From NCBI GenBank assembly GCA_016201275.1, contig JACQDB010000030.1, forward strand, positions 65,864 through 129,863: a DNA stretch of 64,000 nucleotides, written 5' to 3'. The translations under genes were made by a program, and so were the position numbers. This document shows, one piece after another, positions 1 through 51,239 of this stretch. This stretch comes from Acidobacteriota bacterium. Lineage in GTDB: Bacteria; Acidobacteriota; Blastocatellia; UBA7656. The notes below the pieces were generated by a model that searched no databases, had not been told where the DNA came from, and worked only from the letters and a program-made list of their open reading frames with translations. Every line of letters starts with the position of its first letter. Positions within the stretch are counted from its first letter, which is position 1.

Positions 1-1366
1 CCATTCAGACGGGCGCGAAAATCCGTTGCATACAATTGCGGCTTCTCGTCTTCTCGCCAGAACTCCATCCAATGCCCGTAGCGTTCCGCCATAGGCTTGG
101 TTGCCACCGCCAGAAAGCGCTTGGCCTGGCGCAAACGATTTTTCGGATTCAGCGAATCGGGCAACACTTGATGGAGCGCACGCGCCGACCACGCAAAGCC
201 CGGCACTCGATTGGCGCGTTCGGCAATTCGATTGCCCCTATAGCGTTCATAACCGGCAAAGCTTTCGTCGCCGCCATCACCGTTGAGCGCCACCGTGACG
301 GCTTGCCGCGTCATCTGCGATAGGTAATACGTCGGTATCGCCGAAGAGTCGGCATACGGCTCGCCATAATGCCGCACCAGTTTCGGCAGTATGGCAAGGG
401 CGTCGGCTTTGACGATGAATTCGTGATGCTCGGTGTTCCACAAACGGGCGATGCGGCGGGCGTGTTCGGTCTCGTTATAGGCCGCTTCTTCAAAGCCTAT
501 CGAAAATGTCTTCACCGGCTGGCTCGATAGTTGCGCCATCAAACCGACGACGATGCTGGAATCAATGCCGCCGGATAAAAATGCGCCAAGCGGCACATCG
601 GCAATCAGGCGCAGGCGCACCGCTTCGGTCAATTTGTCGCGCAGTTGTTCCACCGCTTCGGCTTCGCTGATGACGGTTTTCGGCGTGTAGTCGAGCGCCC
701 AATAGCGCGTCACCCGCATATCGAAATCATCATCGCGCCCATCCAGAGTCAAATAATGCGCTGGCGGCAGCTTGAAAATATTTTTGAAAGCGGTGTGCGG
801 CGCGGGAACATAGCCCCACGAAAGATAGGCATCAAGCGCCGCCGGATTCACTTCACGCGGCAGCGAAGCATCAGCAAGCAAGCCTTGCAATTCGGAAGCA
901 AAGACAAAGCGTTTGCCAAATCGCCCGTAAAATAAGGGTTTTTTGCCTACTCGGTCACGCGCTACGAATAAGCGTCGCCGCTGTCTGTCCCATATGGCAA
1001 AGGCGAACATTCCGCGCAGACGCCGCAAACAATCCACGCCCCATTGTTGGTAAGCGTTGACGATGACTTCGGTATCGGTGCGCGTGTGAAACGGGTAGCC
1101 CAATGTTTCGAGTTCGTCGCGCAGCGCTTGAAAGTTATAAATCTCGCCGTTGAAAGTAATCCACAAGTTGCCGCTGTGATTGGTCAGCGGATTGCGACCC
1201 GCCGCCGACAAATCAATAATCGCCAGCCGCCGATGCCCCAGCGCGCAATACTCGTCATGCCACACGCCCCAATCATCCGGGCCGCGATGCACCAGCGCGT
1301 CAATCATCGGATTGATGGCGGACGCTGAGGGTTCAAAGGAAACACTACCGGCTATTCCACACATGA
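1..1366 (-). CDS. asnB: Asparagine synthase (glutamine-hydrolysing), EPS-locus type; C-terminus runs off the window start
   Basis: Minus-strand translation from ATG at 1364-1366 gives MCGIAGSVSFEP... (Cys2 Ntn amidotransferase N-terminus) followed by an SGGIDSS PP-loop. The frame stays open to position 1. It is absent from the ORF track because it is truncated. Confidence 0.9.
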
Positions 1367-1459
1367 AGTTACTTGCGAAAAACGTCTATCGAACCGCGTA
1401 AGAAATTGGGCGACTCAACCTGATTGAAAATTTCTGGCCTGATGATTTTTGCGCCGTAG

Positions 1460-1553
1460 GCGCACAGGAAATTAGTCTGTGCGGTAGTTGACACGCCTGC
1501 GCCAGCACGCTCCACGCACTCACGGCGCACAGGAAATTAGTCTGTGCGGTAGG
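1460..1553. repeat. Two 29-bp direct repeats (GGCGCACAGGAAATTAGTCTGTGCGGTAG) 36 bp apart, each with a CGCACAG-N9-CTGTGCG hairpin
   Basis: Copies at 1460-1488 and 1525-1553 are exact. They lie in the asnB upstream / gmd downstream intergenic region. A small GCGCC-GTA-GGCGC palindrome immediately precedes copy 1. Confidence 0.6.
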
Positions 1554-1763
1554 CACTGGAAAACGTCAAGGGCTTGAGCGCCGCGCTCTGGAGGAGCGCC
1601 GGGGCTTGCCTGAGTTTATCTCCTGCACCCTTTCCGGACGCGATGAATTTGCATGATTCAATTCCAGTGCCTGCAACACTGGCTAATTTCCTAAACCCCT
1701 GCGAGGTTTCTAGGGCTGAGTTATAGCGGAATTTGCTTTATTCTACGCGCCGACGTGATGCGC

Positions 1764-2753
1764 TCACACCGGCGTACCGCCCAGATAAGCCAGATCCGCG
1801 TCCACCATTTCGCATACCAGATCGCGGAAATTCCCTTCGTACTTCCAGCCGAGTTTGGTCTGCGCTTTGGTGCTATCGCCAAGCAGCAGATTGACCTCGG
1901 CGGGTCTGTAGAGTTGCGGGTCAATGACGACATAATCCTGATAATTCAAGCCCACGCGGGCGAACGCGATCTCCAGAAATTCGCGCACGCTGTGGGTTTC
2001 GCCGGTGGCAATCACATAGTCGTCGGGCTTCTCCTGTTGCAACATCAACCACATGGCTTTGACATAATCTTTAGCGTTGCCCCAATCGCGTTTGGCGTCC
2101 AGATTGCCAAGCTTGATCTCTTTGGCTCGACCGAGTTTGATCTTTACGGCGTGCGAAGTGATTTTGCGCGACACGAATTCAAAACCGCGCCGTGGTCCTT
2201 CGTGATTGAACAGTATGCCGCTCGACGCATGAAGGCCGTAGGCTTCTCGATAATTGCGCGTCAGATCAAAGCCCGCGACTTTCGATATGCCATAAGCCGA
2301 ACGCGGATGAAACGGGGTTATTTCCGTCTGCGGCATTTCGCGTACTTCGCCGAACATTTCGCTGGAACCGGCGAAATAAAAATGCGCTTGCGGCGCGACT
2401 TCGCGCATCGCCGCCAGCATATAATGTGTGCCGTTGATATTGGTGTTGAGCGTCGAAAATTCATCTTCAAACGAATAACTGACAAAGCTCTGCGCCGCCA
2501 GATGATAAACCTCATCGGGTTTGATAGTGGTCATCACGCGAAAAATGCTCGGATAACTTTCCAGCGAACCGGGTTGCAGATGCAGGTCTTTGAGTATGTG
2601 TTTGATGCGAAACAGGCGATGCTCAGGGTCTTCCAAAGCGACGCGCCGGACGATGCCGTAAACTTCATAATCTTTTTCCAACAGCAGTTCGGCCAGATAC
2701 GAGCCGTCCTGTCCGGTGATGCCGCTGATTAATGCTTTGCGTTTCATATTCAA
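1764..2753 (-). CDS. gmd: GDP-mannose 4,6-dehydratase
   Basis: 329 aa. N-terminus [31 protein letters not shown] (SDR Rossmann), then NHESPRRG-like and YxxxK regions typical of Gmd. Confidence 0.92.
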   Translation of the reverse strand: MNMKRKALISGITGQDGSYLAELLLEKDYEVYGIVRRVALEDPEHRLFRIKHILKDLHLQPGSLESYPSIFRVMTTIKPDEVYHLAAQSFVSYSFEDEFSTLNTNINGTHYMLAAMREVAPQAHFYFAGSSEMFGEVREMPQTEITPFHPRSAYGISKVAGFDLTRNYREAYGLHASSGILFNHEGPRRGFEFVSRKITSHAVKIKLGRAKEIKLGNLDAKRDWGNAKDYVKAMWLMLQQEKPDDYVIATGETHSVREFLEIAFARVGLNYQDYVVIDPQLYRPAEVNLLLGDSTKAQTKLGWKYEGNFRDLVCEMVDADLAYLGGTPV

Positions 2754-2891
2754 AAATCCTTTTGCCGAGGAAGGGTTGACGCCTTCAACTGTGATGATTG
2801 GTCAATGGTGCTTGCGATGTTCGCATAGCTGCGATGGCGGCGCGTGTCGCCAACAGAGGAACAGACTACGCCATTCGCCTCTTGCCGCAGA

Positions 2892-4217
2892 TCAATTCGT
2901 ACTCATGTTCTGGAGCGTTGCAAAGAACGGCGTCTCTTCCATAGCTCTACTGAAAATAAGTTTTTCCGCCGTGGAGACCATCATCAACCGGGCATCCGAT
3001 TTGCGATACATTCGGTAGTTGATGAAGAGGCGAATCGGAGCCATTTCAGGAGCAATATTTTCTGTTGCAAAAGGATTCTCTACGAACGCCTCTATATCAA
3101 TCGAAAGAACATCGTGCGCGGATGCGTTATTGAGATAGGCGCTCTGGCGACGAACTAAGGTGCGTCTATCAATCAACTCGTCCGTGAGCGGCAACTCGGC
3201 GGTTGCCAAAACGTCGCGCTCGCACACATCCAGAAAGACCGGATAGTTGGCGAAATAGACCAAACCCGCGCCATTCAAATCTCGATCCGGCACCAGCTTA
3301 TACTCTCTATTGATCGCCCCTTTGGTCATCGGCACAAAGCCTGGAGGCGGCAGCGCAAAGTGGCAGTCTTTTTCAGCCCGCTTCACCGAAGCGTAAGAGT
3401 CCGGCGCTTCGGACATCTCGGTGATGCGCTCGAAGCCGGGGTTTGCGGGGCGCGATTTCTTCAACCACTCCGCGCCGCCGAATTGCATAACGAAAATATT
3501 AGAGAGACGCACCGCCGGAACGCCCGCTGCCAACGCTGCCTCTATGTTGGCGAACGCCGGTGTGGTGGTCTCCGGATAATCTTCGGGCAGCAAATAAAAA
3601 GTGCCATCCAGCATCGAAGCGCCAAAGCGTTGCAACGCGCTGGCGGCTTTCAGTCTATCGTTTTCGCCAAACGCCGCCATCGGGCGATGCCTGGGAAAGC
3701 CGATCTCAACATAAAAGAAGGTCGGATAAAGGCGATGCCCTTCGGCATCCACGATCTGTTTACTTGGTACGCCGCAAAGGTGGCTGAGGTGTCCCCAACG
3801 CAGATCACCGAGTCTTTGCAGTAAGGGGCCTTCGGCCAAATGATTTCGCCCGGTCAGCGGCATTCCGATTTCGATGTCGGCATAGAGCATACCGGATGGC
3901 CTATATCGGCGTTCGCTGGTTGGCCGCGCATCCGGTTGCGCTGGCGCTACGACGTTGTGGTTTGCCGCCCCGTTGAGCGCCGCTTTCTTGTTGCTGAGGT
4001 AATCCACCAGTTCGGCCATGGAACGAAAGCTCAACCAGACGCTATCGGACAGATGAACCTGGAAGACGCTTTCCAGCGTTTCGCGCAGCACCAGCAATTG
4101 CAGAGAGTCAATGTTGTAATGCGTGACCCACTTCAATACATCAAGGCTCGCTTCATCGGTTTTGGACATCTCGGCAACGATGCCTTTGACCTGAAGCTCC
4201 ACCATCGCTTTATCCAT
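2892..4217 (-). CDS. Acyl-carrier-protein domain fused to a ~360-aa domain of uncertain function (possibly LnmK/Pnap_2097-like acyl-ACP forming/processing)
   Basis: The N-terminal ~80 aa resemble an ACP, with a candidate phosphopantetheine-attachment Ser in NIDSLQLL. The remainder is not recognisably similar to any enzyme I can name with certainty. Confidence 0.5.
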   Translation of the reverse strand: MDKAMVELQVKGIVAEMSKTDEASLDVLKWVTHYNIDSLQLLVLRETLESVFQVHLSDSVWLSFRSMAELVDYLSNKKAALNGAANHNVVAPAQPDARPTSERRYRPSGMLYADIEIGMPLTGRNHLAEGPLLQRLGDLRWGHLSHLCGVPSKQIVDAEGHRLYPTFFYVEIGFPRHRPMAAFGENDRLKAASALQRFGASMLDGTFYLLPEDYPETTTPAFANIEAALAAGVPAVRLSNIFVMQFGGAEWLKKSRPANPGFERITEMSEAPDSYASVKRAEKDCHFALPPPGFVPMTKGAINREYKLVPDRDLNGAGLVYFANYPVFLDVCERDVLATAELPLTDELIDRRTLVRRQSAYLNNASAHDVLSIDIEAFVENPFATENIAPEMAPIRLFINYRMYRKSDARLMMVSTAEKLIFSRAMEETPFFATLQNMSTN

Positions 4218-4248
4218 AAAAAGTTTTCAACCTCATGACCAAGCTCAA

Positions 4249-4989
4249 TTAGACCTTGGCCGGAATCGGATACGCTTCGTCGGGCAAATCTTTGCGCGTC
4301 TTGTCGAAGATCGTTTCATAATCATCGGGCGTGAGTCGGCGTTGCGGACGCGCCGGAACCCCGACGATCAACGAATAACTTTCATCAATCGGGCGCGTCA
4401 GCAAAGAGCCTATGCCGACGATGCAGCAATCCGGCACACTAGCACCCGGAGCGATGCGTAGTTCCGAGCCTAGATAGCAATAATTGCCAATCTCTACCGG
4501 AGCGCTTTTGCGCCGATTGTGTGTCCAGATGGAAGAATTCCGTCCGCCCAACATCGAGCAACGGCCAATCGTCACGCGGTCGGTAAAGTCTATGCGATGC
4601 TCGGCGGTCACCACCGCGCCATAGCCCAGATAAAACGACGGGTCAGGGTTATTGGTGCAGTCGTTATCGGGAATCGCGTTGATGATATTTTGACGAATGA
4701 CTAGCGAATAATCGCCCAGGTAAATGCTCTTGCCGCCGCGAAACAGATTGAGCCAGCCGATGATGGCGTGTTTGCCGATCTGCACCTCGCCACATTGCCA
4801 GAAGACTACGCCGGTCGCAATGCGCGCGTTGTCGTCTATGACGAGGCGGGCGCAATCTAAAAAGGCCATGCCGATGCGGACGTTTCGGCCTATGCGAAAG
4901 CCGAAGCACAGGCGATAGACCGGGCGCTTCAAAATATTCGGCAACACAGCGGCGCATAGCAGACCAAAGATTCGCAAATACTTTTTCAT
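4249..4989 (-). CDS. Hexapeptide-repeat (left-handed beta-helix) acyl/acetyltransferase
   Basis: 246 aa with repeated [LIV]-G-x-x-x-x-I hexapeptide units (IGRNVRIG, VQIGKHAIIG, VTIGRCSMLGG, VEIGNYCYLG). Confidence 0.6.
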   Translation of the reverse strand: MKKYLRIFGLLCAAVLPNILKRPVYRLCFGFRIGRNVRIGMAFLDCARLVIDDNARIATGVVFWQCGEVQIGKHAIIGWLNLFRGGKSIYLGDYSLVIRQNIINAIPDNDCTNNPDPSFYLGYGAVVTAEHRIDFTDRVTIGRCSMLGGRNSSIWTHNRRKSAPVEIGNYCYLGSELRIAPGASVPDCCIVGIGSLLTRPIDESYSLIVGVPARPQRRLTPDDYETIFDKTRKDLPDEAYPIPAKV

Positions 4990-5122
4990 GTGATGATGCG
5001 CTTAATGAACCAAGCAGCGCGCTTTGCTTTCGGCAGTTGTCGTCGTGGCCACATCAATCGCGTTTGGTTCGCGCAGCCATGCGCTCAACCCTGCGTCCCT
5101 TACGCGAGACGGATCGGCAATA

Positions 5123-6775
5123 TTATTTTTGCGGAGCGAAGGTGATGATTTTATATACCAGGCGTTGGCGTTGGTCATAAATCCCCTGCTCTTCCCGTAC
5201 CACCATGCCGGATTGTTGCGCCGCTGAGGCGAGGGCGATTGGCGCGCCGGGAAAGACTGTGGACGCGGGCGCGTTGACGACGAAAATATTATTCGTATCG
5301 GCTACCAGTTGCCGTAGCTCTTCTTGAGGTTGAGACGATTGCCGGTACGGATTAAACGACTCCCGCAAATACAATTGCCCTTGCGAGAGAAAAAACAGGG
5401 TATTGCCCAAGCCCCAATCCATCAGTTGAATCGGGCGGTCGGGGTAGCGTCTCTGTAACAGGTCGGCCAGTTGATAAATCTCCGCGCTCCAAGCTCCCGC
5501 GCCGCCTGTGTTGTGCAGCAAGCGGCGATAACTCGCCAGCACCAAAAGATTCGCGCTCACCGCCAGCACAACTACGGCTGTACCAAGCCATCGGCATACT
5601 GTGCGCCAGCGATTTTGTCTGACCACACGCTTCCACAAAGTCACCAGCGTTAAGGCAACCGCCAAATGTGGAAAAGGATAAATGCCGATCCAGTGATGTC
5701 CGCCGATCAGGCGCGGAGTTAAATAGATTTGCGCCGCCATCGCCAACATCACAAGCGGCAGAAACAACCATCGCCAACGCCGTTTTAAGATGGCGATGGC
5801 GATGAGCGCCAGCATGGCGAAAAGCGACAAAGGCAGCAACAGCGTATGGGAAACGCCCCAACAGGGCGATAGTTTTTCGCCGCACATCAATACGTCGAAC
5901 CCGCGTCCGTCGAGCAGGTTTTTCAACACCGCCGTGCGTTCGGGAAGTAAACCCAGCAAGCGCGTCAGGGAAGCCTCTTCGCCTGGCCGGGCGATCAAAC
6001 GAAAAGTGATCCAGTGTTCGGAGAGATTATAAATCCACAGCGGGGCGCTCGCCAAAAGTCCCGCCAGCACCGCCCAAAACCAGGGTATAAACGTGAGGCG
6101 CGGACGATTTTTATTGATGCTCCAGGCCGCTGCCCCAACTCCCATGAGTGCCACAATGAACCACAGGAAATTCGTTTTATCGTAAATGCCCAAGCCCAGC
6201 AAAGCACCGGCGAGAATCAACGCATAGGTATTTTTTCCGGCGCTCTTCCACCAACGATAAAGGAACAATAGGGCTGCTGCGCGCAAGGCAAAAGCTATTG
6301 CCATCGGCCCGTAGTCAGAGCGCGAATAGAGAACCAACGAAGGATCGGTGGCCACCAGCCAAACGCCCACCACACTCACTTGCCGCCCGTACATGGCGCG
6401 GGCAAAACGCGATGTAAACAGCAGTCCGATTATCGTCACCAAAATGTTGGTGAGACGAAATGCTGTGACGTGAATGCCGAAGACGGAAAAGACCAGCGCG
6501 AAAAGATACGCTTTCAACGCGCCGATATATTGATAGCTCATCAACGCGAAGGTGCGTCCGCCAACGGTGAAAGAGCCGAAGTGACGATAGTTCCCGTTGA
6601 TTTCTCCCTTGACCAGGTGTATAGCCGAAGGGGTTTGCAATACCTCGTCATATTGAATTCCCGGCAAGGTAAGATTCGCCGCCGCCGACCACAGATACGT
6701 CGCCATAGCGGAAGCGAGCAGCGCATAATAAATTTTATTGCGCTGCTTTCGTATCAACCGTGATGTCGTCTGCAT
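5123..6775 (-). CDS. Polytopic membrane glycosyltransferase, ArnT/PMT (GT39/GT83)-like
   Basis: 550 aa with at least 10 predicted TM helices. N-terminal region has the DE/aromatic loop layout of undecaprenyl-phosphate-sugar dependent GT-C enzymes. Pairs logically with the DPM1-like GT2 at 15302-16429. Confidence 0.5.
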   Translation of the reverse strand: MQTTSRLIRKQRNKIYYALLASAMATYLWSAAANLTLPGIQYDEVLQTPSAIHLVKGEINGNYRHFGSFTVGGRTFALMSYQYIGALKAYLFALVFSVFGIHVTAFRLTNILVTIIGLLFTSRFARAMYGRQVSVVGVWLVATDPSLVLYSRSDYGPMAIAFALRAAALLFLYRWWKSAGKNTYALILAGALLGLGIYDKTNFLWFIVALMGVGAAAWSINKNRPRLTFIPWFWAVLAGLLASAPLWIYNLSEHWITFRLIARPGEEASLTRLLGLLPERTAVLKNLLDGRGFDVLMCGEKLSPCWGVSHTLLLPLSLFAMLALIAIAILKRRWRWLFLPLVMLAMAAQIYLTPRLIGGHHWIGIYPFPHLAVALTLVTLWKRVVRQNRWRTVCRWLGTAVVVLAVSANLLVLASYRRLLHNTGGAGAWSAEIYQLADLLQRRYPDRPIQLMDWGLGNTLFFLSQGQLYLRESFNPYRQSSQPQEELRQLVADTNNIFVVNAPASTVFPGAPIALASAAQQSGMVVREEQGIYDQRQRLVYKIITFAPQK

Positions 6776-6874
6776 GAAAATTTGACGCCGGTACTTTGCC
6801 TATCCGTTTTTGATTTCCCTGTGGCAATCGCATAGTTGCCAAGATCATCCCGTTTTCGGAGAAAGAGAATTCAC

Positions 6875-6952
6875 CACAGATGAACACCGTTGAACACCGC
6901 TACCAGAAAACTTCTGGCTTTTCCTATCGGTGTTTATCGGTGTTCATCTGTG
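6875..6952. repeat. 78-bp palindromic element (25-bp imperfect arms CACAGATGAACACCGTTGAACACCG / CGGTGTTTATCGGTGTTCATCTGTG) with inner CCAGAAAACTTCTGG hairpin
   Basis: Arms read directly from the sequence. Each arm contains a tandem GAACACCG motif. Located ~100 bp upstream of the start of the 5123-6775 gene. Confidence 0.6.
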
Positions 6953-7057
6953 ATTCCAATTCGCCCTTCTTTATTGCGCTTTGAAAGCCCTCTGCATAGT
7001 TGTCTGGCGTCTCGCAAGCAAGCGTTAGCGAGCGTTGCCCCGATAAACCTAGCGCCC

Positions 7058-7186
7058 CTAGAGCGGTTTTTGTTTGAGATTACGGAAACCTCAAAGCCGT
7101 TGAGCGGCGGTCGAAGACCTTCGCGCGGTCGAAGACCGCTGCTCAACGATAAGGGGTTCCGTACACATACATGAAAACCGCTCTAG
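7058..7186. mobile_element. MITE-like palindromic repeat, family A, copy 1 (TIR GAGCGGTTTTTG...CAAAAACCGCTC, flanked by TA)
   Basis: ~95% identical to 55373-55499. Terminal inverted repeats, internal GTTGAGCGGCGGTCGAAGACC palindrome, TA on both flanks. No coding capacity. Confidence 0.6.
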
Positions 7187-7217
7187 ACGAGGCGGCAGAG
7201 GGTTCACAGGGCTGCGC

Positions 7218-8336
7218 TTACCGCACCAGACTGCGGGTCTCCATTTCAGCGGTGGCGGTTGCCACTTTGTCTGTGGCGTGTTGCCCGCGCACCCATTCCA
7301 GCAATTCCGGTATGCCTTGCTCCAGACTGATTTTCGGCTCATAGCCCAACAACTTTCGCGCACGAGAAATATCGGCCACGCAATGGCGTATATCGCCTTC
7401 GCGATATTTGCCGACGATCTCCGGTTCAAGCGCTTTGCCCAAGCCTTCGGCCAATAAATGCGCCACCTGTTTAATCGAAGTAGCGCGGCCTGTGCCGACG
7501 TTGATGGCCTGATAATCGGCGGCCTCAGCTTGCAGCGCCAGTACATTCGCCTGCACGATGTCGCTGACGTGTGTGAAGTCTCTGGATTGCCCACCGTCTT
7601 CAAAAATCATCGGCGGTTGATCGTTCAACAGACGCGAAGAAAAAATTGCACAGACGCCGGTGTAAGGATTCGACAACGCCTGCCGCGTGCCATAGACATT
7701 GAAATAACGCAGCGCAATCGTAGGGAGGTTGTAAGCGCGACCGACGACCAGGCAGAGTTGCTCTTGATCCTGTTTGGTTATCGCATAGACCGAAGTCGGA
7801 AACAGCGGCTTGTCTTCGGTAGTGCCGACCGGCGCAAGCGGCAAACCGGTGTTGACGGATTCCAACTCCCAACGCCGTTCCAGCAGTTGCGAAGTCGAGC
7901 GCAGTTGCGGATAAACAATCGCTTCGCCATCCCTGTACGCGCCCTCGCCATAGATGGACATCGAAGAGGCAACGATGATTTTGCGTATGCGGTCGCGGCG
8001 TTCGACGAGGGCTTCCAGTAAGACCGAAGTGCCAAAGGTATTGGCGCGCACATACTTCTGCATTTCGTACATGGATTGACCGACGCCGACTTCTGCGGCC
8101 TGATGATAAACCACATCTATGCCATCAAGCGCCTGTGAGAGTTTCGCTGCGTCGCAGACATCGCCAATAATTAATTCGGCTTCAGCGTGCAGATGTTGCG
8201 GACGTGCGTTTTGATGAACCTGCGACACCAGCGCATCCAGTACGCGCACCTTGTGACCTTCGGCAATGAGCGCATCCACCAGATGCGAACCAATAAATCC
8301 GGCTCCGCCGGTGACCAAGATATTCAATCTTTCCAT
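7218..8336 (-). CDS. NAD-dependent sugar epimerase/dehydratase (SDR family)
   Basis: 372 aa. N-terminus ILVTGGAGFIGSHLV (GxxGxxG) and a YxxxK catalytic region. The substrate cannot be assigned from sequence alone. Confidence 0.8.
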   Translation of the reverse strand: MERLNILVTGGAGFIGSHLVDALIAEGHKVRVLDALVSQVHQNARPQHLHAEAELIIGDVCDAAKLSQALDGIDVVYHQAAEVGVGQSMYEMQKYVRANTFGTSVLLEALVERRDRIRKIIVASSMSIYGEGAYRDGEAIVYPQLRSTSQLLERRWELESVNTGLPLAPVGTTEDKPLFPTSVYAITKQDQEQLCLVVGRAYNLPTIALRYFNVYGTRQALSNPYTGVCAIFSSRLLNDQPPMIFEDGGQSRDFTHVSDIVQANVLALQAEAADYQAINVGTGRATSIKQVAHLLAEGLGKALEPEIVGKYREGDIRHCVADISRARKLLGYEPKISLEQGIPELLEWVRGQHATDKVATATAEMETRSLVR

Positions 8337-8476
8337 CTCGCTTTCCTGAAATCAGAATGGTGCTGCGTGAACGGGACGTGGGGCAAAGAGCGCTTGGCGA
8401 GGCGACAGTAATTTTGTCCACGTTGCGCCAGCCGTTTTGTTCGCATTGCGCCAGCGCTGGTCACCAAGACAGACCT

Positions 8477-10464
<1,988 letters not shown>

Positions 10465-10489
10465 GATCGTTATTGTTCCGAATTGAAAA

Positions 10490-40287: not shown

Positions 40288-40290
40288 GTC

Positions 40291-42083: not shown

Positions 42084-43108
42084 CAGCCTACATCCAGGAA
42101 TTTTTTGTACCACTTAATGGTCTGCTGCAAACCTTGATCGAGGGTAAACAGCGGTTGCCAGCCCAAGTCACGACGCGCCTTTTCAGCACTCAAATACTGA
42201 TGACGAATCTCATGGCTCGCTTCGTTGCGGATGTCCGGCGCGAAATCACAAGCCATCTGCGCTAAAATTTGATTTACCAAATCCAGCACCGTCACCTCAA
42301 TTTCATTGGAAAAATTGAAGGCTTGCCCGCGCCAATCAGGATTTTCAGCAAGCTTTTCTGCCAACAAAGTATAAGCCGCTGCGCCATCTTCGACATAAAA
42401 ATAATCGCGCACATAATTGCCATCCGAACGAATGATTGGTCGTTGTCCGCGCAACACCGAGCGTATGGTTCCCGGGATGATGCGGTTCCAATTCAAATCG
42501 CCGCCGCCATAAAAATTGCCGCAGCGCGTAATCGCCACTGGCAAACCGTAGGTCTTTGTATAGGTCTGGGCTATCAAATCCGCACAAGACTTGCTGACAT
42601 CGTATGGATGGCTGCCTTGCAGCGGCGTCTCTTCATTGTATGGCAAGCTCTCGTGTTCCCCATATGCTTTATCTGATGAAGCAAGCACAATCTGTTTTAC
42701 CGCAGGGCTTCTTCGGCAGGCTTCAAGCAATGCCCAAGTACCGGCGATGTTGGTTTCAAAGGTCGAGATCGGATTGCGGTTGGCTATGCCAACAATGGTC
42801 TGCGCCGCTAAATGAATAACCGTGTCTATTTCGTATTCGCCAAGCGCGCGCTCTAGCAAGCTCTGGTCGCGCACATCGCCGCGTACAACTTTGACTTGCT
42901 CAATAAGCCGACTGCTAGTGAGTTCGCTTTGCGGAACCCAATCGCGAATCAAGCAAACGACATCAGCGCCCAACGCCAACAACCGCCGCGCTAAAGAACT
43001 GCCCACCAATCCCGTAGCGCCGGTGATCAAGGTCGGGCGGTCTTGCCAGAAGCGTTTTTTATTTTCGGTTATTCCCAGATTTTCCAAGGCGGGTTCCCAC
43101 TTTTCCAC
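42083..43108 (-). CDS. rfbG: CDP-glucose 4,6-dehydratase
   Basis: [25 protein letters not shown]..., and [10 protein letters not shown] (YxxxK). Overlaps rfbF by ~40 bp, so the true start may be a downstream non-ATG codon. Confidence 0.85.
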
Positions 43109-43839
43109 AAACTTTCAAGCAAGCGCAAATCCCTAAGCGTGTCCATGCATTGCCAGAAACCATCATGCCGATAGGCCGCCAACTGACCATCACTTGCGAG
43201 TTTTTCCAAGGCATCCGCTTCCAGGCTGCTGCTATCATCTTGCAAATATTCAAACACTCCAGGTTCACAAACCATAAAGCCGCCGTTGATCCAGCCTTCG
43301 CCAGCTTGCGGTTTTTCGGTGAACTTGGAAACCAGGTCGCCATCAAAAATGAGTCCACCAAATCGAGCCGGTGGACGCACAGCCGTTATGGTTACCAGAC
43401 GACCGTGGGAGCGGTGAAAAGTTAAGAGTTGACGAAGATTTATATCAGCGACTCCATCGCCATATGTAACCATGAAAGTGTCATCTTTTAAGTAGGATTC
43501 CAGACGCTTGATGCGACCTCCGGTCAGCGTCTCTTTGCCGGTCTCCATCAAATGAATCATCCAGTCTTCGCATTCTCTACTGCGTGTTTGAAAATCGCCG
43601 GTAGAAAAATTCATGGTAACGCTGCCGCTGAAGCTGTAATAATCCGAGAAGAATCGTTTAATAAATTCGCCTTTGTATCCTAGAGCAATAAAAAATTCTT
43701 TGAAGTCATAATGCCAATAGTGCTTCATGATATGCCATAGAATCGGATACTCGCCGATTTCCACCATAGGCTTGGGCTTCACTTCAGTCTCTTCGGCAAG
43801 GCGGCTTCCAAGTCCGCCTGCAAGGATCGCTACTTTCAC
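43069..43839 (-). CDS. rfbF: Glucose-1-phosphate cytidylyltransferase
   Basis: [41 protein letters not shown] is nearly invariant among RfbF orthologs. Confidence 0.9.
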
Positions 43840-43860: not shown

Positions 43861-45141
43861 CTAGTTTTCTTTGACGTGGTACTCGGTGTGCCATTGCAAC
43901 ATCGGTCGCACGACGCCTGGCATATGTCCCGCATAATCGCCGCGTGAGGAATTGCCGTCAAGGCTGTCCACCACCTGAAAAGCCACCGCATCTTGCTCAT
44001 GAAAATGTATGGTCACCGGGTCCATGGTGCTGATGGCTGCGCCAACAATCATCGTGCCTTCAGAGAGAAAATTACCGGGAACCCAAACCGTGCTTTTATA
44101 TCGTCCGAGGGGACGCGGTGTGGTTCGCCAATGCTCATCGAGTTCTTGAGCGACAAAGGCGCAGACTCCTTCTTCAGTATAAAAATGGTAATTGGGTACC
44201 AAAATGTGATACGGATTCAGCACAGCGTATTCCATCTCCAAGCCAATTGGTTTTCTGATGTCAACGACATCCGTTAGCTGTCCATCCTCATCAACCACGC
44301 GGATAGCGTACAGGCGAACGATGTCATTACCCGGAGCCTTTTCTAAATCTTGCCACTCTCTTACAGCCGTTGTGCCAAGCCCTGAATTCAAATATGAACT
44401 GGCCACTTTGTGGGCGGTGCCATCAGCCAGCACTTGCCCATCGCCGAGCAAAATGGCGCGTTTGCACAGCCGCGTGATCGCCGACATATTATGTGAAACA
44501 AACAGCACGGTCCTGCCGTGTTCGCCGACATCGCGCATTTTTTCCAGGCATTTCTTTTGAAACCCAGCGTCACCGACGGCCAGCACTTCGTCAACAATCA
44601 ATATCTCCGGCTCCAGATGCGCCGCGACCGCAAACGCCAGACGCATATACATACCGCTGGAATAGTGCTTCACCGGCGTGTCTATGAATTTTTCGATCTC
44701 GGCAAAGGCCACTATCTCATCGAACTTGCGCTCAATCTCGGCGCGCTTCATGCCCAGAATCGCGCCGTTCAAATAAATATTCTCGCGTCCGCTCAACTCC
44801 GGGTGAAACCCCGTACCAACTTCCAGTAAACTGCCGACCCTGCCATATAGTTTAATGTTTCCGGTGGTCGGTTCAACGATGCGCGCCAGAATTTTCAACA
44901 AGGTTGATTTGCCTGCGCCGTTGCGTCCGATGATGCCCACGACTTCGCCGGGTTTTACTTCAAAGCCAACATCTTTCAAAGCCCATATGGTTTCAACCCC
45001 ATTTCCTTTTTTGCTCTGACTCTTGCTGAAAGGCGCACGGATACTTCTAACGATTGAATCGCGCAACGTCCCATAAGACGCATCGCGTGTGCCTAGGCGA
45101 TATTGCTTGCTGACATTTTCGACGGTGATGATGGATTGCAT
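43861..45141 (-). CDS. wzt: Polysaccharide ABC-transporter ATP-binding protein with C-terminal carbohydrate-binding domain
   Basis: Walker A GRNGAGKST, signature YSSGMYMRLAF, Walker B ILIVDE. A ~190-aa C-terminal extension follows, typical of Wzt proteins that recognise a modified chain terminus. Confidence 0.85.
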   Translation of the reverse strand: MQSIITVENVSKQYRLGTRDASYGTLRDSIVRSIRAPFSKSQSKKGNGVETIWALKDVGFEVKPGEVVGIIGRNGAGKSTLLKILARIVEPTTGNIKLYGRVGSLLEVGTGFHPELSGRENIYLNGAILGMKRAEIERKFDEIVAFAEIEKFIDTPVKHYSSGMYMRLAFAVAAHLEPEILIVDEVLAVGDAGFQKKCLEKMRDVGEHGRTVLFVSHNMSAITRLCKRAILLGDGQVLADGTAHKVASSYLNSGLGTTAVREWQDLEKAPGNDIVRLYAIRVVDEDGQLTDVVDIRKPIGLEMEYAVLNPYHILVPNYHFYTEEGVCAFVAQELDEHWRTTPRPLGRYKSTVWVPGNFLSEGTMIVGAAISTMDPVTIHFHEQDAVAFQVVDSLDGNSSRGDYAGHMPGVVRPMLQWHTEYHVKEN

Positions 45142-45142
45142 A

Positions 45143-46021
45143 TCAAACGAAATCGGCGAAGCTTTTTTCCATGCGCCGAAACACATAGGCGGAAGAGACG
45201 AGCAGGAGCACGGCTATGCCCACAGAGATATTGAAAGACAGCCAATCGAAGGGTCGGTTAAACAGAGCGGCGCGGCTGTTTTCCACTATGCCGGTCAAGG
45301 GATTCAGTTTCATCAACCATTGCCATTTTTCCGGTATCAAACTCGACGGATAATAAACCGGCGTGGCAAACATTCCGACCTGCACCAGAAACGGAATCAT
45401 CGCCGCTACGTCGCGGTATTTCACATTCAAAGCCGACAGCCACATCCCCACGCCCAATGCCAAAATGGTCATCAGCACAATCAGTACAGGAAACATCAGC
45501 AGGTGGACGCTTGCGCCGACGCCGTAATAGATCATCAAACCGATCAGCACGACCACAGAGACGGCATAATCCACCAACCCCGAAAGCACGGTGGCGCTCG
45601 GAATAATCAGGCGCGGAAAATAGACTTTGGTAATCAGGTTGGCACTGCCGACCAGACTGCTGCCGCTTTGCGTGATGGCTTTCGAGAAAAACATCCAGGG
45701 CAGCAACCCGGCAAAGACGAACAGCGCATAAGGCAGATTGTCCGAAGGCACGCGCACGATTTTGCCGAAGAAAATCGTGGTAATCACCATCGTCATCAAG
45801 GGCTGCAAGACCACCCAGACGACGCCCAATAGAGTTTGTTTGTAGCGCACTTTGACATCGCGCCAAGTCAGAAAATAGAGCAATTCACGATAGGCCCAGA
45901 TTTCCTTCAAGTTCAAAGCCAACCAGGTGCGACTGGCTTTGATCTCGACGACCGGCTCCGGCGGCAACACCTGTGGCACATCCGGCGACTTGCCGGGTTC
46001 AAGCTCTGCGAGGGTTTCCAT
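45143..46021 (-). CDS. wzm: Polysaccharide ABC-transporter permease (ABC-2 type)
   Basis: 292 aa, six TM helices, ABC-2 N-terminal signature RDVKVRYKQTLLGVVWVVLQP. Confidence 0.85.
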   Translation of the reverse strand: METLAELEPGKSPDVPQVLPPEPVVEIKASRTWLALNLKEIWAYRELLYFLTWRDVKVRYKQTLLGVVWVVLQPLMTMVITTIFFGKIVRVPSDNLPYALFVFAGLLPWMFFSKAITQSGSSLVGSANLITKVYFPRLIIPSATVLSGLVDYAVSVVVLIGLMIYYGVGASVHLLMFPVLIVLMTILALGVGMWLSALNVKYRDVAAMIPFLVQVGMFATPVYYPSSLIPEKWQWLMKLNPLTGIVENSRAALFNRPFDWLSFNISVGIAVLLLVSSAYVFRRMEKSFADFV

Positions 46022-46056
46022 AGTTTCTATCAGGGTCTTTGCTGATTCGAGGTGTT

Positions 46057-48462
46057 TCAGTCGCCGCTTGCTTCGTTGCGCTCCTGTCCGTAGCTTTCAT
46101 AGTAACGATAATGGTAATAATCGTCGTAGCCATTTTTACGGTAGTCCACGTTGTTTAGCACCACGCCGAAAATCTTGGCTCCTACGGCGGTCAACTCCTG
46201 GCGCGTGCGGCGCAGCACATCGCGTGTGGTCTTGCCCGCCTGCACCACCAGTATGACGCCATCGGTCATGGTGGATAAAATCACCGGGTCGGTGACGTGC
46301 ATCAAGGGCGGCGAGTCTATCAGAATATGATCGAAGCGTTCTGATAAAGTCCGCAGCATCTCTTTCATCTTGTCGGAACTGATCAACTCCGCAGGGTTGG
46401 GCGGAATCGGCCCGCAGGGCAGCAATGAAAGATTGGCTATCGGCAGTTTTTGAATCAGGCCGTCCAATTCCACATCCCGCGACAGGTACGTAGAGATGCC
46501 GCGTGAATGGTCAACGCCGAAGACTTTATGAGTAGAAGGCTTGCGAAGATCGCAATCAATAATCAACACCGAAGCGCCGAGTTGCGCCAGCGATACCGCC
46601 GTGTTGACGGTGGTGGTGGTTTTGCCTTCACCGGGTTGACCGCTGGTCACCAGCATAATCTTGGGCGGACCACCGGCGCTCGACAGCATCACCGAAGTTC
46701 GCAACACGCGATAGGCTTCGGCTACCGAGGAACGCGCTTCCAGTGCTGCCACTTGACCGGGCATGGTGAAGGTGTCGCTTTTGGCCACCGCCGTGCTGCT
46801 GCCGCTGCCTTTTTTCACCGCTGCCAGCTTACGCATATTGCGTCCAGCCATAGCCGGTATGGCGGCCAATGCCGGCAATTGCGCGAAGGTCGCCACGTCT
46901 TCAACGGTCTTGATGGTGTTGTCCAGATATTCCAGAAAAAACGCCAGCCCGATGCCACCGGCAAAACTCAGCAGCATCCAGGTGAAAATGGTCTTCAATC
47001 TATCGGGGCCAATCGGCGCGCCGGGCGCTTCGGCAGGTTCGGCCAACTGTAGATTGTTATTCTGCTCGACGCGCTGCAAATCCGCCTGACTGGTCTTGGT
47101 CAAAAATTCTTTGTACAAGGCGCGCTGAGTTTCGACCTCCTGCTTGAGCATCGTGTATTCAATCTCGGCGCGGTTCTGTTGCGTGGCTTCGCCTTTGCTC
47201 TGCTCCAAAATCGCCTTCAACTGTTTCTCTTCGCGCAGCGCCTTTTCATAATCGGCCTTCAATTTGGCTTCCAAAGTTCCGACATTAGCTTTGATTTGTT
47301 CTTCCACCGTGGCTATCTGCTCGGTGATTTCAATGATCTTGGGATGCTTGTCGCCATAGTTGACTTCGAGTTGTGATTTCTGCACCCGCAACTCGCGCAA
47401 CTTCTTCTGCAATTCGCCCATCTGGGTATCGGTAAATATTTCCGGCAGCGTCAAAATGTTGCCCTTCTTCACCTCTTCATAGAGCGATTGCTTGAGTATG
47501 CGTTCGCCTTCTATGCGTTGCACCTGCTCATAAAAATGTAGCAGTTTATCGGTGCCTACATTGCCCGAACCGTTCCCGGATCTGCCGACAAACGACATAT
47601 CGTGATCGCGCAGATAAGTCGCCTGCGCCTGTTCGGCCTGTTCAACTTTGGCTTTCAATTCGCGGGTCGTGCGGTCGAGCCATTCGCTGGTCTTGGTAAA
47701 ATTTTCCGTTTTGCTTTTGAAGTTCTGTACAATGAAATGCTGCGCCACGGTATTGGCCACCGCCGCTGCGGTCTCTGGGTCGGTGTGGGTAAACGACACC
47801 ATAATCAAACGCGCCGCCGGTAATTGCTCGACCCCCAGGCCGCTGCCTATGACGCCCGCATAGGGCGACCACTTGGCCTTTTCTTCCGGCGTCATCTCTT
47901 TATTCAAATCAGTCGCTGGAATGTCTTTGATAACCGCAGGCGCTTTCGGATCATTGGATAAACGGACGCGGTTAAAGACCGTCTGCACCGCTTCGGTAAT
48001 GGATTTGCGCGACGTGACTTCAAAGAATTTCGGGTTCTGATCGAGCCGCAGACTGGCCGCAACTTCCAACAGCAACGGGCGACTCTTAATCATGTACATA
48101 TAGGTGTTCATGGCGTCGGAGTCGTCGGTTTGAATGACAATGTTCTGCGCTTTCATGAGCGTTGCGGCGTCTTTGCGAACCTCTATGGAAGCCGTAGCCT
48201 TGTAGATGGATTTGGTGCGATAGACTTCAATCGTCGCCGCCGAGGTAACGATAAAGACGATGACCAGAATCAGCCATTTGCGTTTGAGTACGGTGCGCCA
48301 GATGGCGCGAAAGTTGATGCCGCCTTTATCCGGCGTCGGATAGCCATAGCCATACGAACTGCTGTCCGCCGGATAGCCCGGCAAGGTCGGATAGCCCGGA
48401 CGCACCAATGGATGTTCTTCTCTTGGGGTCATGCGCTCTAGTTCTACTCGTTTATCCTCCAC
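46057..48462 (-). CDS. wzc: Polysaccharide co-polymerase / BY-kinase (PCP-2a)
   Basis: Periplasmic coiled-coil region, Walker A GQPGEGKTTT, Walker B ILIDSPP, and a Tyr-rich tail YDDYYHYRYYESYG. Confidence 0.88.
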   Translation of the reverse strand: MEDKRVELERMTPREEHPLVRPGYPTLPGYPADSSSYGYGYPTPDKGGINFRAIWRTVLKRKWLILVIVFIVTSAATIEVYRTKSIYKATASIEVRKDAATLMKAQNIVIQTDDSDAMNTYMYMIKSRPLLLEVAASLRLDQNPKFFEVTSRKSITEAVQTVFNRVRLSNDPKAPAVIKDIPATDLNKEMTPEEKAKWSPYAGVIGSGLGVEQLPAARLIMVSFTHTDPETAAAVANTVAQHFIVQNFKSKTENFTKTSEWLDRTTRELKAKVEQAEQAQATYLRDHDMSFVGRSGNGSGNVGTDKLLHFYEQVQRIEGERILKQSLYEEVKKGNILTLPEIFTDTQMGELQKKLRELRVQKSQLEVNYGDKHPKIIEITEQIATVEEQIKANVGTLEAKLKADYEKALREEKQLKAILEQSKGEATQQNRAEIEYTMLKQEVETQRALYKEFLTKTSQADLQRVEQNNNLQLAEPAEAPGAPIGPDRLKTIFTWMLLSFAGGIGLAFFLEYLDNTIKTVEDVATFAQLPALAAIPAMAGRNMRKLAAVKKGSGSSTAVAKSDTFTMPGQVAALEARSSVAEAYRVLRTSVMLSSAGGPPKIMLVTSGQPGEGKTTTTVNTAVSLAQLGASVLIIDCDLRKPSTHKVFGVDHSRGISTYLSRDVELDGLIQKLPIANLSLLPCGPIPPNPAELISSDKMKEMLRTLSERFDHILIDSPPLMHVTDPVILSTMTDGVILVVQAGKTTRDVLRRTRQELTAVGAKIFGVVLNNVDYRKNGYDDYYHYRYYESYGQERNEASGD

Positions 48463-48539
48463 AGCCTCTTCTCCTATTTCTGCTATGCTGCATACGTTGA
48501 ACGCTTGCTGCTAACACATCAGCATCGTCAAGGTGCCAG

Positions 48540-49799
48540 CTACCGAATGATGCCGCGTTGAATGGTCGTCATGCCAAAGCCTTGCAGAATGGTGCCGCCA
48601 ATGCTCCGCATACGACTGCTGGGAACCACGACCAAATCATCTGCTTGTAACAATATGTCGGACTTCTTGCCGCTCATCACGGCGTCTATGTCCACAGTGA
48701 TTTCCAATTGTTTGCCGTCTTCGTTATTGCCGCGAAAGATCACGGCGCGGCTTCGCGCCGCTTTAAAGGTCGTGCCTTGCGCCAGCGTGATGGCTTGACG
48801 CAAAGTGGTGCCTTCTTTCAAAGGGAACGAACCGGGGGCATTGACTTCGCCACCGATAAAGAAGACATTGAGCGCTGGAATGTTCACCACATCGCCCGGC
48901 AACAAGGTGATGTTCTGACTGAAGCGGCCTCTTTCCAAGCCGTTGATGTTGGCTCGAATCATTTCGTAATCCTGATTGTCGGCGGCGACTTCCGTCGCCG
49001 CCGTGGTCGCAGGCGTAGTCGCCACCGGCATCGCTGCTTCAGCGGCGGTCGTCTGTTTGGCGCTGACCGCCTCCACGCTGGCAGCGTCCGTGGTCATTGG
49101 CGCACGTTGTTTGCGCCGTATGATAAAGGCGTTGGGGCCGTGATTTTCCATCATGCCTCCAGCCAACACAATCAAATCCAAAATCGTGACTTTGCCGCGA
49201 ATCTTATAGGCTCCGGCAGCGTGCACCGAGCCATGAATAAAAAAGGTGCGGCTGTTATATTCGGTGACGTTGACGCTGATGCGTGGGCGCTTCAAATAAT
49301 CGGCCTTGATGAGCGCCTCGCGGATGCTGGCCGCCAATTGGTCGGGAGTTTTATTGACTGCCAGCAATTTGCCTATGACCTGCATCTCGATGAACCCGGC
49401 AACGCTGACGGTATAGGATTGTGATAACTCCGGCGCGTCTTCGATCTTAACCGTCAAGACATCCGACGGGCCTATGTAATAATCATCCTGCGACACCACC
49501 CAGACATTGGACGCCGAGTTATTTCCCGGCGCAGCATTTTTGCCTCGGTTGTCATCCTGACTATTGGCCGACGCGGATTGCTGCTGCGGTTGTGACTGAG
49601 CGCTGGTGGACAAGCCTGCAAACATCAGCGCCAATAGCGCCATGCCCAAGATCGCGGCGACAACGCCGGTGGGTTTTCGGCTGCTGACAAAGCCGCGCCT
49701 TGTTGGCCTGCGGTTTTTATATCGCTTGATGAGGTTTGGTCTATCGCTAGGTTGTGTGGTCATACTGCCTCCAGAACGATCCGTTGATTGATGCACCAT
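48540..49799 (-). CDS. wza: Outer-membrane polysaccharide export protein (OPX)
   Basis: PES-motif region YYIGPSDVLTVKI and two SLBB-like repeats (VSVNVTEYNSRTFFIHGSVHAAGAY...). N-terminal signal/anchor. Confidence 0.8.
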   Translation of the reverse strand: MVHQSTDRSGGSMTTQPSDRPNLIKRYKNRRPTRRGFVSSRKPTGVVAAILGMALLALMFAGLSTSAQSQPQQQSASANSQDDNRGKNAAPGNNSASNVWVVSQDDYYIGPSDVLTVKIEDAPELSQSYTVSVAGFIEMQVIGKLLAVNKTPDQLAASIREALIKADYLKRPRISVNVTEYNSRTFFIHGSVHAAGAYKIRGKVTILDLIVLAGGMMENHGPNAFIIRRKQRAPMTTDAASVEAVSAKQTTAAEAAMPVATTPATTAATEVAADNQDYEMIRANINGLERGRFSQNITLLPGDVVNIPALNVFFIGGEVNAPGSFPLKEGTTLRQAITLAQGTTFKAARSRAVIFRGNNEDGKQLEITVDIDAVMSGKKSDILLQADDLVVVPSSRMRSIGGTILQGFGMTTIQRGIIR

Positions 49800-49817
49800 T
49801 CCGTACTTGACTTGCGG

Positions 49818-51239
49818 TCAACGGGTCTCCCGCATCAAGGCTTTGCCGACGCCTAGCGCGGCAAAGAGCGTCTGCCCTGCGCTGCTATTGGTTGACGTAT
49901 CTTCATAACGCCTGACCTGTTCTACGGTCTGTGATAACAGCGCCACAAGCAGGAAGAAGAGCAAAGTATTTGAGGGCAATTGGAGATTGAAATCAAATAG
50001 GCTATGCACCAGGATTGCAAATACTCCCGCGCCGCTGCCCAGCGTCAGAGCGGCCAGCAAAGGGTCTCGCGCTTTCAGACCGCGAAGCAATTCGCGAAAG
50101 ATGAGCGCCAAAAACCACAAAGCCAGCAAACCACCTGTCAACCCGGCGTCGGCCAGCACTTGTAAATAATCGTTATGTGCTTGCCCAACGATCAACGCCC
50201 CATCGCTGTGGCTGTATTGCGGATACGCAGTTGCAAATCCACCGAGGCCAACGCCCAGCACCGGATTGGCCTTTATCATAGCCCAGGTGTCTTTCCATAT
50301 CCAGCCTCTGCTGGTATAAAAAGTTTCCTCTTGATTGGTAGCGCCCAAGACCGCGCCGCCCGTCAAGCGTCCGACCAGGCGGTCTGGCCCAACCCACAAG
50401 ACGCCCAACCCAAGAGCCAAAAGAATCGCTACGCTCAAGGCCAGCCCTTTTATCCAAGTCACGGCACGCGGCTGCAACGTCAAAGGCGCGTGCCGCCGCG
50501 CTCGCCGCTTCATTCGCAACATGATTTTGCAAAACCCCATGAAGGCAATCGCCGCCGCCAGACTGACCATGCCGCCGCGTGATAACGAAGCGACCGCTGC
50601 TGTACTCATCACCAGCGCCGCGAAGCCGTAAAAGAGTCTGGCTTCCAACTTCCTGCCTTCCGCCCAGGCCAACGCCAGCGCCAACGGAATCAGCATCTCC
50701 ATGTAACCGGAAAAATGATTGTGGCTGACGAAGGGGCCAAAGGGCGATGCGCCATTGAGATTCGGTTTGAACCAATAAAATCGCCCGTTCCAAGTGAAAA
50801 ATTGCACCAGCGAGAACATCGCCAAGGCGACGCCATAACCGACCAGAAAATTCACCACGCCGTAAAGCCGGGTTCTGCTCACCAATAGATTGATCGCCAC
50901 CAATAGAAAGACGGTCAGACAAAACAGCATCAATACTGCCCGTCGCGTCGCCTCTACATTTCGCGATAGGCTGTGCATCTCGCCGACGCTATCACTGACC
51001 GCCAGCCCCTGCACCAAGCCGACCAACAGCAAGGCGAGGACCGGCAAAGCCAGCGGCGGCAATTTCAAGGTCAGACTTTTCTGCGCTATCAGTTTGGCGG
51101 CCAAACCCAACAGACTGAGAATGCCGAGCGCCTCAAAAACGGCTACCGACCAGGCTTCTACGACGCCCTGTGCCAGCGCCGAAAAGACCACCGCAAACAG
51201 TAAAATGACGAGTAAAGTTCTTTCAAAAAACGCTGTCAT
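49818..51239 (-). CDS. O-antigen ligase-family (Wzy_C domain) membrane protein
   Basis: 473 aa, about 12 TM helices. The periplasmic loop with ...HNHFSGYMEMLIPLALAL resembles the WaaL/Wzy_C catalytic loop. Confidence 0.6.
   Translation of the reverse strand: MTAFFERTLLVILLFAVVFSALAQGVVEAWSVAVFEALGILSLLGLAAKLIAQKSLTLKLPPLALPVLALLLVGLVQGLAVSDSVGEMHSLSRNVEATRRAVLMLFCLTVFLLVAINLLVSRTRLYGVVNFLVGYGVALAMFSLVQFFTWNGRFYWFKPNLNGASPFGPFVSHNHFSGYMEMLIPLALALAWAEGRKLEARLFYGFAALVMSTAAVASLSRGGMVSLAAAIAFMGFCKIMLRMKRRARRHAPLTLQPRAVTWIKGLALSVAILLALGLGVLWVGPDRLVGRLTGGAVLGATNQEETFYTSRGWIWKDTWAMIKANPVLGVGLGGFATAYPQYSHSDGALIVGQAHNDYLQVLADAGLTGGLLALWFLALIFRELLRGLKARDPLLAALTLGSGAGVFAILVHSLFDFNLQLPSNTLLFFLLVALLSQTVEQVRRYEDTSTNSSAGQTLFAALGVGKALMRETR

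Follow-up and report, generated by a model that had tools for sequence, protein, structure and literature searches.

A polysaccharide locus of Blastocatellia that may pair a Wzm/Wzt transporter with a Wzc/OPX export module

In current schemes of bacterial polysaccharide export, polysaccharide co-polymerases of class 2 (PCP-2) go with Wzy-dependent polymers and those of class 3 (PCP-3) with capsules that depend on an ATP-binding cassette (ABC) transporter (PMC12220298). Pathway-calling tools classify loci by the pairings PCP-2a/Wzx-Wzy and PCP-3/ABC. Surveys of the proteins for polysaccharide export at the outer membrane (OPX proteins) rely on the same Pfam markers to call pathways, and contexts containing only a PCP are hard to assign (PMC9601211). 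ABC transporters are absent from the text of a review on the bacterial tyrosine kinases (BY-kinases). In Synechocystis, mutants of KpsM/KpsT and of Wzc/Wza all change the extracellular polysaccharide (EPS), and the authors propose a cross-talk between the pathways (PMC7885315). The IMG gene numbers of sll0923, slr0977 and slr0982 are near-consecutive (PMC4594306), which we read as physical proximity. In the literature searched, no conserved block of Wzm/Wzt with PCP-2a and OPX proteins has been described, and the Synechocystis hypothesis is the nearest idea. Here we analyze a stretch of 64,000 nucleotides (the window) from an Acidobacteriota bacterium of the class Blastocatellia (GCA_016201275.1, contig JACQDB010000030.1, positions 65,864 to 129,863), in which such a block stands at the head of a polysaccharide locus.

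Five genes occupy the minus strand contiguously from 51239 to 43861. Pfam and NCBIfam identify them as a membrane protein of the Wzy_C family (49818–51239), a Wza-like OPX protein (48540–49799), a BY-kinase-bearing PCP-2a (Wzc; 46057–48462), the ABC-2 type permease Wzm (45143–46021) and the ABC ATPase Wzt (43861–45186, with a likely start at 45141). In this order, the spacers measure 18, 77, 35 and 1 bp, and none of the four gaps contains a terminator-like site. An earlier interpretation of the window, here called the sequence-only reading, had placed the same genes at 43861–51239 and had noted that Wzm/Wzt stands together with OPX and a BY-kinase of the PCP-2a class; the coordinates, the common strand and the pairing are confirmed. 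From 51239 down to window position 1 every gene lies on the minus strand, with a widest gap of 442 bp, and the run reaches further upstream too, all genes from 55122 to 1 sharing this strand. The block heads a co-directional glycan locus which extends to window position 1 and then probably for another 2–6 kb. The best sigma-70-like promoter match (TTGACG-17-TAGAAT, 10 of 12 positions; 51607–51635, minus strand) falls upstream of the Wzy_C gene, where a gap of 457 bp separates it from its neighbor; as a similarity to the consensus alone, this predicted site is weak evidence only. We lean modestly towards reading all of this as one polysaccharide locus whose export architecture is a hybrid, in which Wzm/Wzt acts together with Wzc and the OPX protein.

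The transporter genes are of the O-polysaccharide kind. Wzm matches the ABC2_membrane family (PF01061, 83.8 bits), and its nearest NCBIfam model is the galactan Wzm/RfbD, with KpsM behind. Wzt combines an ABC_tran domain with a C-terminal domain, putatively of the carbohydrate-binding type, which matches Wzt_C weakly. Its nucleotide-binding domain aligns with the Aquifex O-antigen Wzt structures 6AMX, 7K2T and 8DKU (E ~1e-66), and 13 of 15 Wzt orthologues match Wzt_C (best E 4.7e-14). The pair thus comprises an ABC-2 permease and an ATPase of the kind nearest to O-antigen or teichoic-acid exporters. Wzc harbors Wzz, GNVR and AAA_31 domains, that is, the periplasmic Wzz/GNVR portion fused to a P-loop kinase which defines a PCP-2a BY-kinase, and it scores 197.5 against TIGR01007 (cut-off 108). 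The motifs GEGKTT, IIDCDLR and LIDSPP (Walker A, A′ and B) and the tyrosine-rich C-terminal tail are invariant in 17 orthologues. The OPX protein contains Poly_export (PF02563, 69.4 bits) and two SLBB domains, with two matches each to PF10531 and PF22461. Its closest solved relative is a short OPX protein of 186 residues (9N9A). The N-terminus is a long low-complexity region, and a lipobox cysteine is absent.

A genome scan with a Wzc alignment yielded 80 loci, all in metagenome-assembled genomes (MAGs) of Blastocatellia type, a few of them with other taxon labels. The loci were annotated with the window proteins, clusters of polytopic proteins, Pfam searches on cluster representatives and then custom hidden Markov models (HMMs); individual loci are cited below by L numbers. 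The close relatives of the window Wzc all belong to Blastocatellia or Acidobacteriota. Some locus records are labeled Clostridia or Heliobacteriaceae, yet their proteins are Blastocatellia-like. Several genomes carry at least three Wzc loci. The usual head is the trio Wzy_C–OPX–Wzc, and the content after Wzc varies; the OPX or the Wzy_C gene is missing from the head in several loci. The full order Wzy_C–OPX–Wzc–Wzm–Wzt is also found in L001, L008, L007 and L011, with Wzc identities to the window of 86%, 85%, 57% and 55%.

What follows the head is an ABC cassette, a MOP-type cassette or neither. In 51 non-redundant loci the sequence downstream of Wzc measures at least 8 kb: Wzm/Wzt is present in 13 of them, a MOP flippase (Wzx or MurJ-like) in 25, both in none and neither in 13 (one-sided Fisher test, p = 2.2e-5, uncorrected for phylogeny). 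The full set comprises 21 loci of ABC type against 35 of MOP type, and no locus has both within 10 kb to either side. A neighbor-joining tree of Wzc intermingles the two types, with at least five switches. The pair L010 and L011 is instructive: Wzc and Wzy_C are 83% and 71% identical, and the former has, within ~10 bp, a Polysacc_synt_3 flippase (Wzx) and the latter has Wzm/Wzt. This alternation behind orthologous heads is directly observed, as are the gene content and order of the locus and its lack of Wzx and PCP-3. Exclusive cassettes alternating in this manner are expected of a swappable flipping or export step and not of an accidental neighborhood of two loci. The 13 loci without Wzm/Wzt or a recognizable MOP flippase carry unassigned polytopic proteins (clusters mem6, mem7 and mem12).

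The first gene of the head deserves separate consideration. The Wzy_C domain occurs in some Wzy polymerases as well as in ligases. The window protein matches PF04932 (67.8 bits). A direct sequence search of the PDB with the single protein gave no match and a profile was needed: built from 34 orthologues, it matches the WaaL structure 7TPG (E=4.9e-10) across the conserved AHNDY region. R221, R291, R311 and H355-N356-D357 are invariant in these orthologues, and the segment AHNDYLQVLADAG fits the H-X10-G ligase motif. An intact Wzy_C gene is present in 12 of the 16 ABC-type loci with sufficient upstream sequence; L074, one of the four scored negative, was positive in an earlier phmmer scan. L073 holds a separate O-ag_pol_Wzy gene in addition to the head Wzy_C gene. 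In ABC-type loci it is hard to see what a repeat-unit polymerase would act on. Because of this, the match to 7TPG and the separate polymerase gene of L073, a putative ligase-like activity is favored over that of a polymerase. WaaL acts in whatever way the glycan was flipped.

Several components of the established pathways were searched for in the window. Among its 52 minus-strand open reading frames (ORFs) of at least 100 residues, Pfam detected no MOP flippase, and no PCP-3, KpsS/KpsC, Wzb phosphatase or priming transferase was found. The kinase-bearing Wzc is the sole Wzz-domain protein of the window, and no window gene matches Capsule_synth. HMMs made from Blastocatellia Wzx and MurJ-like proteins matched nothing in the six-frame ORFs of the window, L001, L168, L007, L008 and L011. 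On the lack of a Wzx in the window, Pfam and the class-specific models agree. An HMM from Blastocatellia WecA-like proteins found no match in the six-frame ORFs of the window. A motif search for WbaP-type priming enzymes was negative in the window and in every locus, with a regular expression which was perhaps too strict.

The window locus was read to position 1, which lies within an asnB-type gene, and relatives indicate what may follow. L168, L171 and L172 share the distal gene order; L168 is on the same contig as L001, and together they form an ABC-type locus of ~43 kb, contiguous and free of MOP flippases. The AsnB proteins of L171 and L172 are 81% identical to that of the window. Past asnB, a GT4 glycosyltransferase gene occurs in all three relatives, followed in L168 and L171 by an SDR gene, at which the available stretch of L168 ends. 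In L171 a WecA-like PNPT gene comes after the SDR gene and the locus ends ~6.5 kb past asnB; in L172 the end is reached at ~2 kb. WecA-like PNPT genes also lie beside the heads of L007, L074 and L075. Pfam matched neither MOP-flippase nor exosortase families in the flanks of L168, L171 and L172, where several short genes are without any Pfam hit. A wzx/wzy pair immediately outside the window, which the sequence-only reading had named as the finding that would speak against it, was not seen in these syntenic flanks. A metagenome scan with AsnB returned just paralogues of 40–58% identity from diverse taxa and is uninformative on the flank and on the frequency of the hybrid arrangement elsewhere.

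The sequence-only reading had left the choice between two polymers made from one locus and an atypical hybrid route. Its hybrid half gains from the synteny and from the mutually exclusive cassettes, and its two-glycan half is less parsimonious. Three further sets of features support the hybrid architecture: the gaps of 1–77 bp free of terminator-like sites, with the best promoter-like site, a weak indication, upstream of the Wzy_C gene; an apparently O-polysaccharide-type Wzt with Wzt_C, accompanied by seven predicted methyltransferases as candidate cappers; and the WecA-like PNPT genes which close L171 and flank the heads of L007, L074 and L075. If two glycans shared one address, Wzm/Wzt and the WaaL-like protein would make a lipopolysaccharide (LPS) O-antigen delivered through Lpt, and Wzc and the OPX protein would export another, Wzx/Wzy-type polymer encoded elsewhere, or would mainly regulate. 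Such a division fits the Wzt_C-type Wzt, the methyltransferases, the WecA-type priming of the relatives and the WaaL-like enzyme, which constitute an O9a-type parts list with no need of PCP or OPX; furthermore, the several Wzc loci per genome could share components. We nevertheless regard it as rather unlikely. No ABC-type locus has a MOP flippase within 10 kb, nor is one present in the ~43–51 kb of the window or of L001 plus L168, and the MOP-type loci able to supply such a polymer each own a Wzc/OPX head. In addition, Wzc and the OPX protein stay intact, with all kinase motifs kept, in ABC-type loci down to 55–57% identity, and near-orthologous heads precede either cassette. A different division of labor, in which Wzm/Wzt replaces Wzx for lipid-linked units or blocks and the Wzy_C protein, a genuine polymerase, joins these under the control of Wzc ahead of their export through OPX, appears improbable to us. 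The conserved head is indeed the trio which cooperates in Wzx/Wzy systems, and many MOP-type loci lack a second polymerase candidate within 10 kb. However, the C-terminal domain of Wzt is typical of transporters recognizing finished, capped chains, the Wzy_C profile matches a ligase structure, and L073 has a separate O-ag_pol_Wzy in addition to the head Wzy_C.

The sequence-only reading had also compared the locus with EPS loci of the exosortase (XrtA/PEP-CTERM) type, and an exosortase could then lie beyond the window. The gene classes of such loci are resembled by the AsnB-type amidotransferase, the deacetylase, the GNAT protein, Wzc and the OPX protein, and TIGR03108 is the top-scoring model for full-length AsnB. 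Its score is 656.9 for a cut-off of 816.9, and the other XrtA-specific models also remain below their cut-offs (TIGR03018, 146.4 for 230.65; TIGR03027, 103.8 for 180; TIGR03007, 122.4 for 278.85; TIGR03097, 31.7 for 188.1) or, for TIGR03006 (deacetylase) and TIGR03019 (GNAT), give no match. The four models on which that comparison could be checked (TIGR03108, TIGR03006, TIGR03019 and TIGR03018) are among these, and the syntenic flanks of L168, L171 and L172 show no exosortase-family gene by Pfam. This explanation is largely refuted and we consider it very improbable. Several points weigh against the hybrid architecture itself. The window Wzt reaches 22.6 bits for Wzt_C (PF14524) where the threshold is 30.4, over 127 of 143 profile positions. 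Alignments of the OPX protein to E. coli Wza end at D2, none reaching the outer-membrane helix D4, and ~24 residues follow the last SLBB domain; the protein seems to be without this helix and may require a separate outer-membrane β-barrel partner, for which no candidate was found in the window. WaaL and Lpt suffice for classical ABC O-antigen pathways, without PCP or OPX proteins, so that Wzc and the OPX protein could serve something else. The p-value overstates independence because the loci are phylogenetically related, and the cassette census is incomplete, as 13 of the 51 loci have neither flippase type within 10 kb. Finally, the sequence past window position 1 lies outside the data, and the evidence consists of sequences from uncultured MAGs.

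Downstream of wzt, the locus encodes precursor synthesis, assembly and tailoring functions in three regions, all on the minus strand. The head and the distal end both have a GC content of ~54%, against 46.8% in 33376–43839 and 48.7% in 14300–27500. Four of the genes in the low-GC cassette (33376–43839) are CDP-sugar genes (rfbF, rfbG and those of a C-methyltransferase and a 3,5-epimerase). The cassette also contains two methyltransferases (one a rhamnosyl O-methyltransferase of the CmcI type), a DegT aminotransferase, a GT2, the remnant of a GT4 pseudogene (35695–36211), a GNAT protein (34513–35514) and a polysaccharide deacetylase (33376–34422). L001 lacks it. Behind Wzt that locus has a methyltransferase of 662 residues, and next come orthologues of the genes which in the window run downward from 33428, the GT4 gene first. 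The remnant is a frameshifted copy of residues 32–190 of the GT4 gene at 32112–33428, with 61–85% identity in two frames, and is likely the scar of a cassette insertion. Together, the absence from L001 and the internal remnant are consistent with cassette exchange by recombination.

The assembly and tailoring block (14300–33428) comprises GT4, GT2 and GT1-like transferases, four methyltransferases, an α/α-toroid protein, a GT-C enzyme (26190–27488), an Acyl_transf_3 protein, an MBOAT protein and its partner gene, and, at 15302–16429, a PpgS-like synthase of polyprenyl-phosphate sugar. The distal block (1–14240) encodes two GT4, two GT-C enzymes (11602–12978 and 5123–6775), gmd, fcl, an epimerase, a hexapeptide acyltransferase, a fusion of an acyl carrier protein (ACP)-like and an LnmK-family domain, a second gmd-like gene and the AsnB-type amidotransferase (partial, 1–1364). 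Over the whole locus we count approximately ten GT2, GT4 or GT1-like transferases, three GT-C proteins (PMT_2/GT39-like) and seven methyltransferases. Two precursor branches are present, from CDP-glucose (rfbF, rfbG, the C-methyltransferase, the 3,5-epimerase and the DegT aminotransferase) and from GDP-mannose (gmd, fcl and the second gmd-like gene). The 458-residue protein at 11602–12978 was considered as a flippase or polymerase and rejected: the homologue search gives a GT-C/GT39-like transferase, its homologues bear PF13231 and are annotated as GT39, and a direct PDB sequence search returned no match. Regarding the genes listed by the sequence-only reading, asnB, the deacetylase and the GNAT gene stand, and the FemAB match proposed for the GNAT protein does not. 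Its ACP gene shrinks to a borderline N-terminal PP-binding domain (20.3 for 20.8 bits) of the fusion at 2892–4217, whose second part is an acyltransferase/decarboxylase of the LnmK family passing TIGR04098. The fusion adjoins the hexapeptide acyltransferase (region 2892–4989) close to the AsnB-type amidotransferase, and this neighborhood suggests that a sugar is decorated in an unusual way, with a short acyl group or an amide.

We infer all biochemical steps of the hybrid route from these genes, and likewise any physical coupling of Wzm/Wzt to Wzc. A heavily methylated, acylated heteropolysaccharide would be assembled at the cytoplasmic face, with undecaprenyl-diphosphate as carrier, by approximately ten GT2/GT4 enzymes. 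Its sugars could include fucose or other 6-deoxyhexoses derived from GDP precursors and a C-methyl/amino dideoxyhexose derived from CDP-glucose. Priming is probably performed by a WecA-like transferase encoded just past the window. The finished chain, probably capped by methylation, would be bound by the C-terminal domain of Wzt and carried across the inner membrane by Wzm/Wzt. Periplasmic decoration may then involve the three GT-C enzymes, with a polyprenyl-phosphate sugar as donor, and the MBOAT and Acyl_transf_3 acyltransferases. Lastly, the conserved head of WaaL-like Wzy_C protein, OPX protein and Wzc would handle the chain, the Wzy_C protein moving the glycan off the lipid carrier.

Upstream of the locus, 51697–55122 encodes a secreted CagX-like protein, a lytic transglycosylase (SLT) and a secreted protein of 232 residues, in an order kept in L001, L002 and L008; the CagX-like and SLT genes are also near another Wzc in L071. 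Further away, an imperfect hairpin of ~280 nt (58474–58755; RNA fold of −173.6 kcal/mol, z = −12.2) is located in 2.2 kb of sequence (57975–60190) to which no gene could be assigned with confidence and in which no Rfam, tRNA or Pfam match was found. A shorter copy of this palindromic element is intergenic at 52440–52545, and an exact 23-mer search did not recover it from 172 fetched loci. The minus-strand region 60191–63813 is a defense-like neighborhood composed of a fusion between an nSTAND2-type STAND NTPase and a Ser/Thr protein kinase (60191–62131), a D12-class N6-adenine DNA methyltransferase (62162–63106) and an EcoRV-family restriction endonuclease (63103–63813). A perfect 20-bp hairpin (60092–60145) lies directly 3′ of the nSTAND2-kinase gene.

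More broadly, we put forward tentatively, as a possibility to be taken seriously, that the BY-kinase PCP-2a and OPX proteins of Blastocatellia form, with a dedicated WaaL-like enzyme, a pathway-agnostic head onto which either a Wzx-type or a Wzm/Wzt-type step can dock. In that case a tyrosine kinase would control the secretion of ABC-dependent polymers, outside the three-pathway scheme. If this is true, different flipping mechanisms could exchange their periplasmic and outer-membrane export module, present schemes would assign many acidobacterial loci wrongly, and one would have to ask what the BY-kinase regulates when there is no Wzy polymerization step. Acidobacteriota are abundant soil bacteria, and their extracellular polymers influence soil aggregation. 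Cultured Blastocatellia exist, which makes the hybrid prediction testable.

Compared with known systems, the pairing of an ABC transporter with Wzc and OPX proteins is a variant of described export machineries which recurs within one class. The ABC-dependent O-polysaccharide pathway of E. coli O9a and Aquifex shares with it Wzm, a Wzt with a (here putative) C-terminal binding domain, methyltransferases as candidate cappers, WecA-like priming (in the relatives) and a WaaL-like protein. In its classical form, however, that pathway lacks a PCP-2a kinase and an OPX protein, and here both are conserved between the ligase-like gene and wzm. Group 2 capsules of the KpsMTED type likewise span the envelope with an ABC exporter, a PCP and a protein of the OPX type (scheme in PMC12220298), whereas here the PCP is a PCP-2a with a BY-kinase instead of a PCP-3, Wzm/Wzt takes the place of KpsMT, and the linker enzymes KpsS/KpsC are absent. 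With the Wzx/Wzy-dependent group 1 and 4 capsules and EPS (Wza-Wzc), the locus has in common complete Wzc kinase motifs, a Wza-like OPX protein and a Wzy_C protein, and sister loci of the same class use a MOP flippase; in contrast, it has no Wzx, no Wzb phosphatase and no detectable D4 helix in the OPX protein. The closest precedent is found in Synechocystis PCC 6803, where ABC and Wzc/Wza components both affect the EPS (wzc sll0923, kpsM/wzm slr0977 and kpsT/wzt slr0982; PMC7885315). There the genes are dispersed, on opposite strands as judged from the sll/slr names, and the link between the pathways is a proposed one, whereas in Blastocatellia they form a tight co-directional block which recurs in many genomes.

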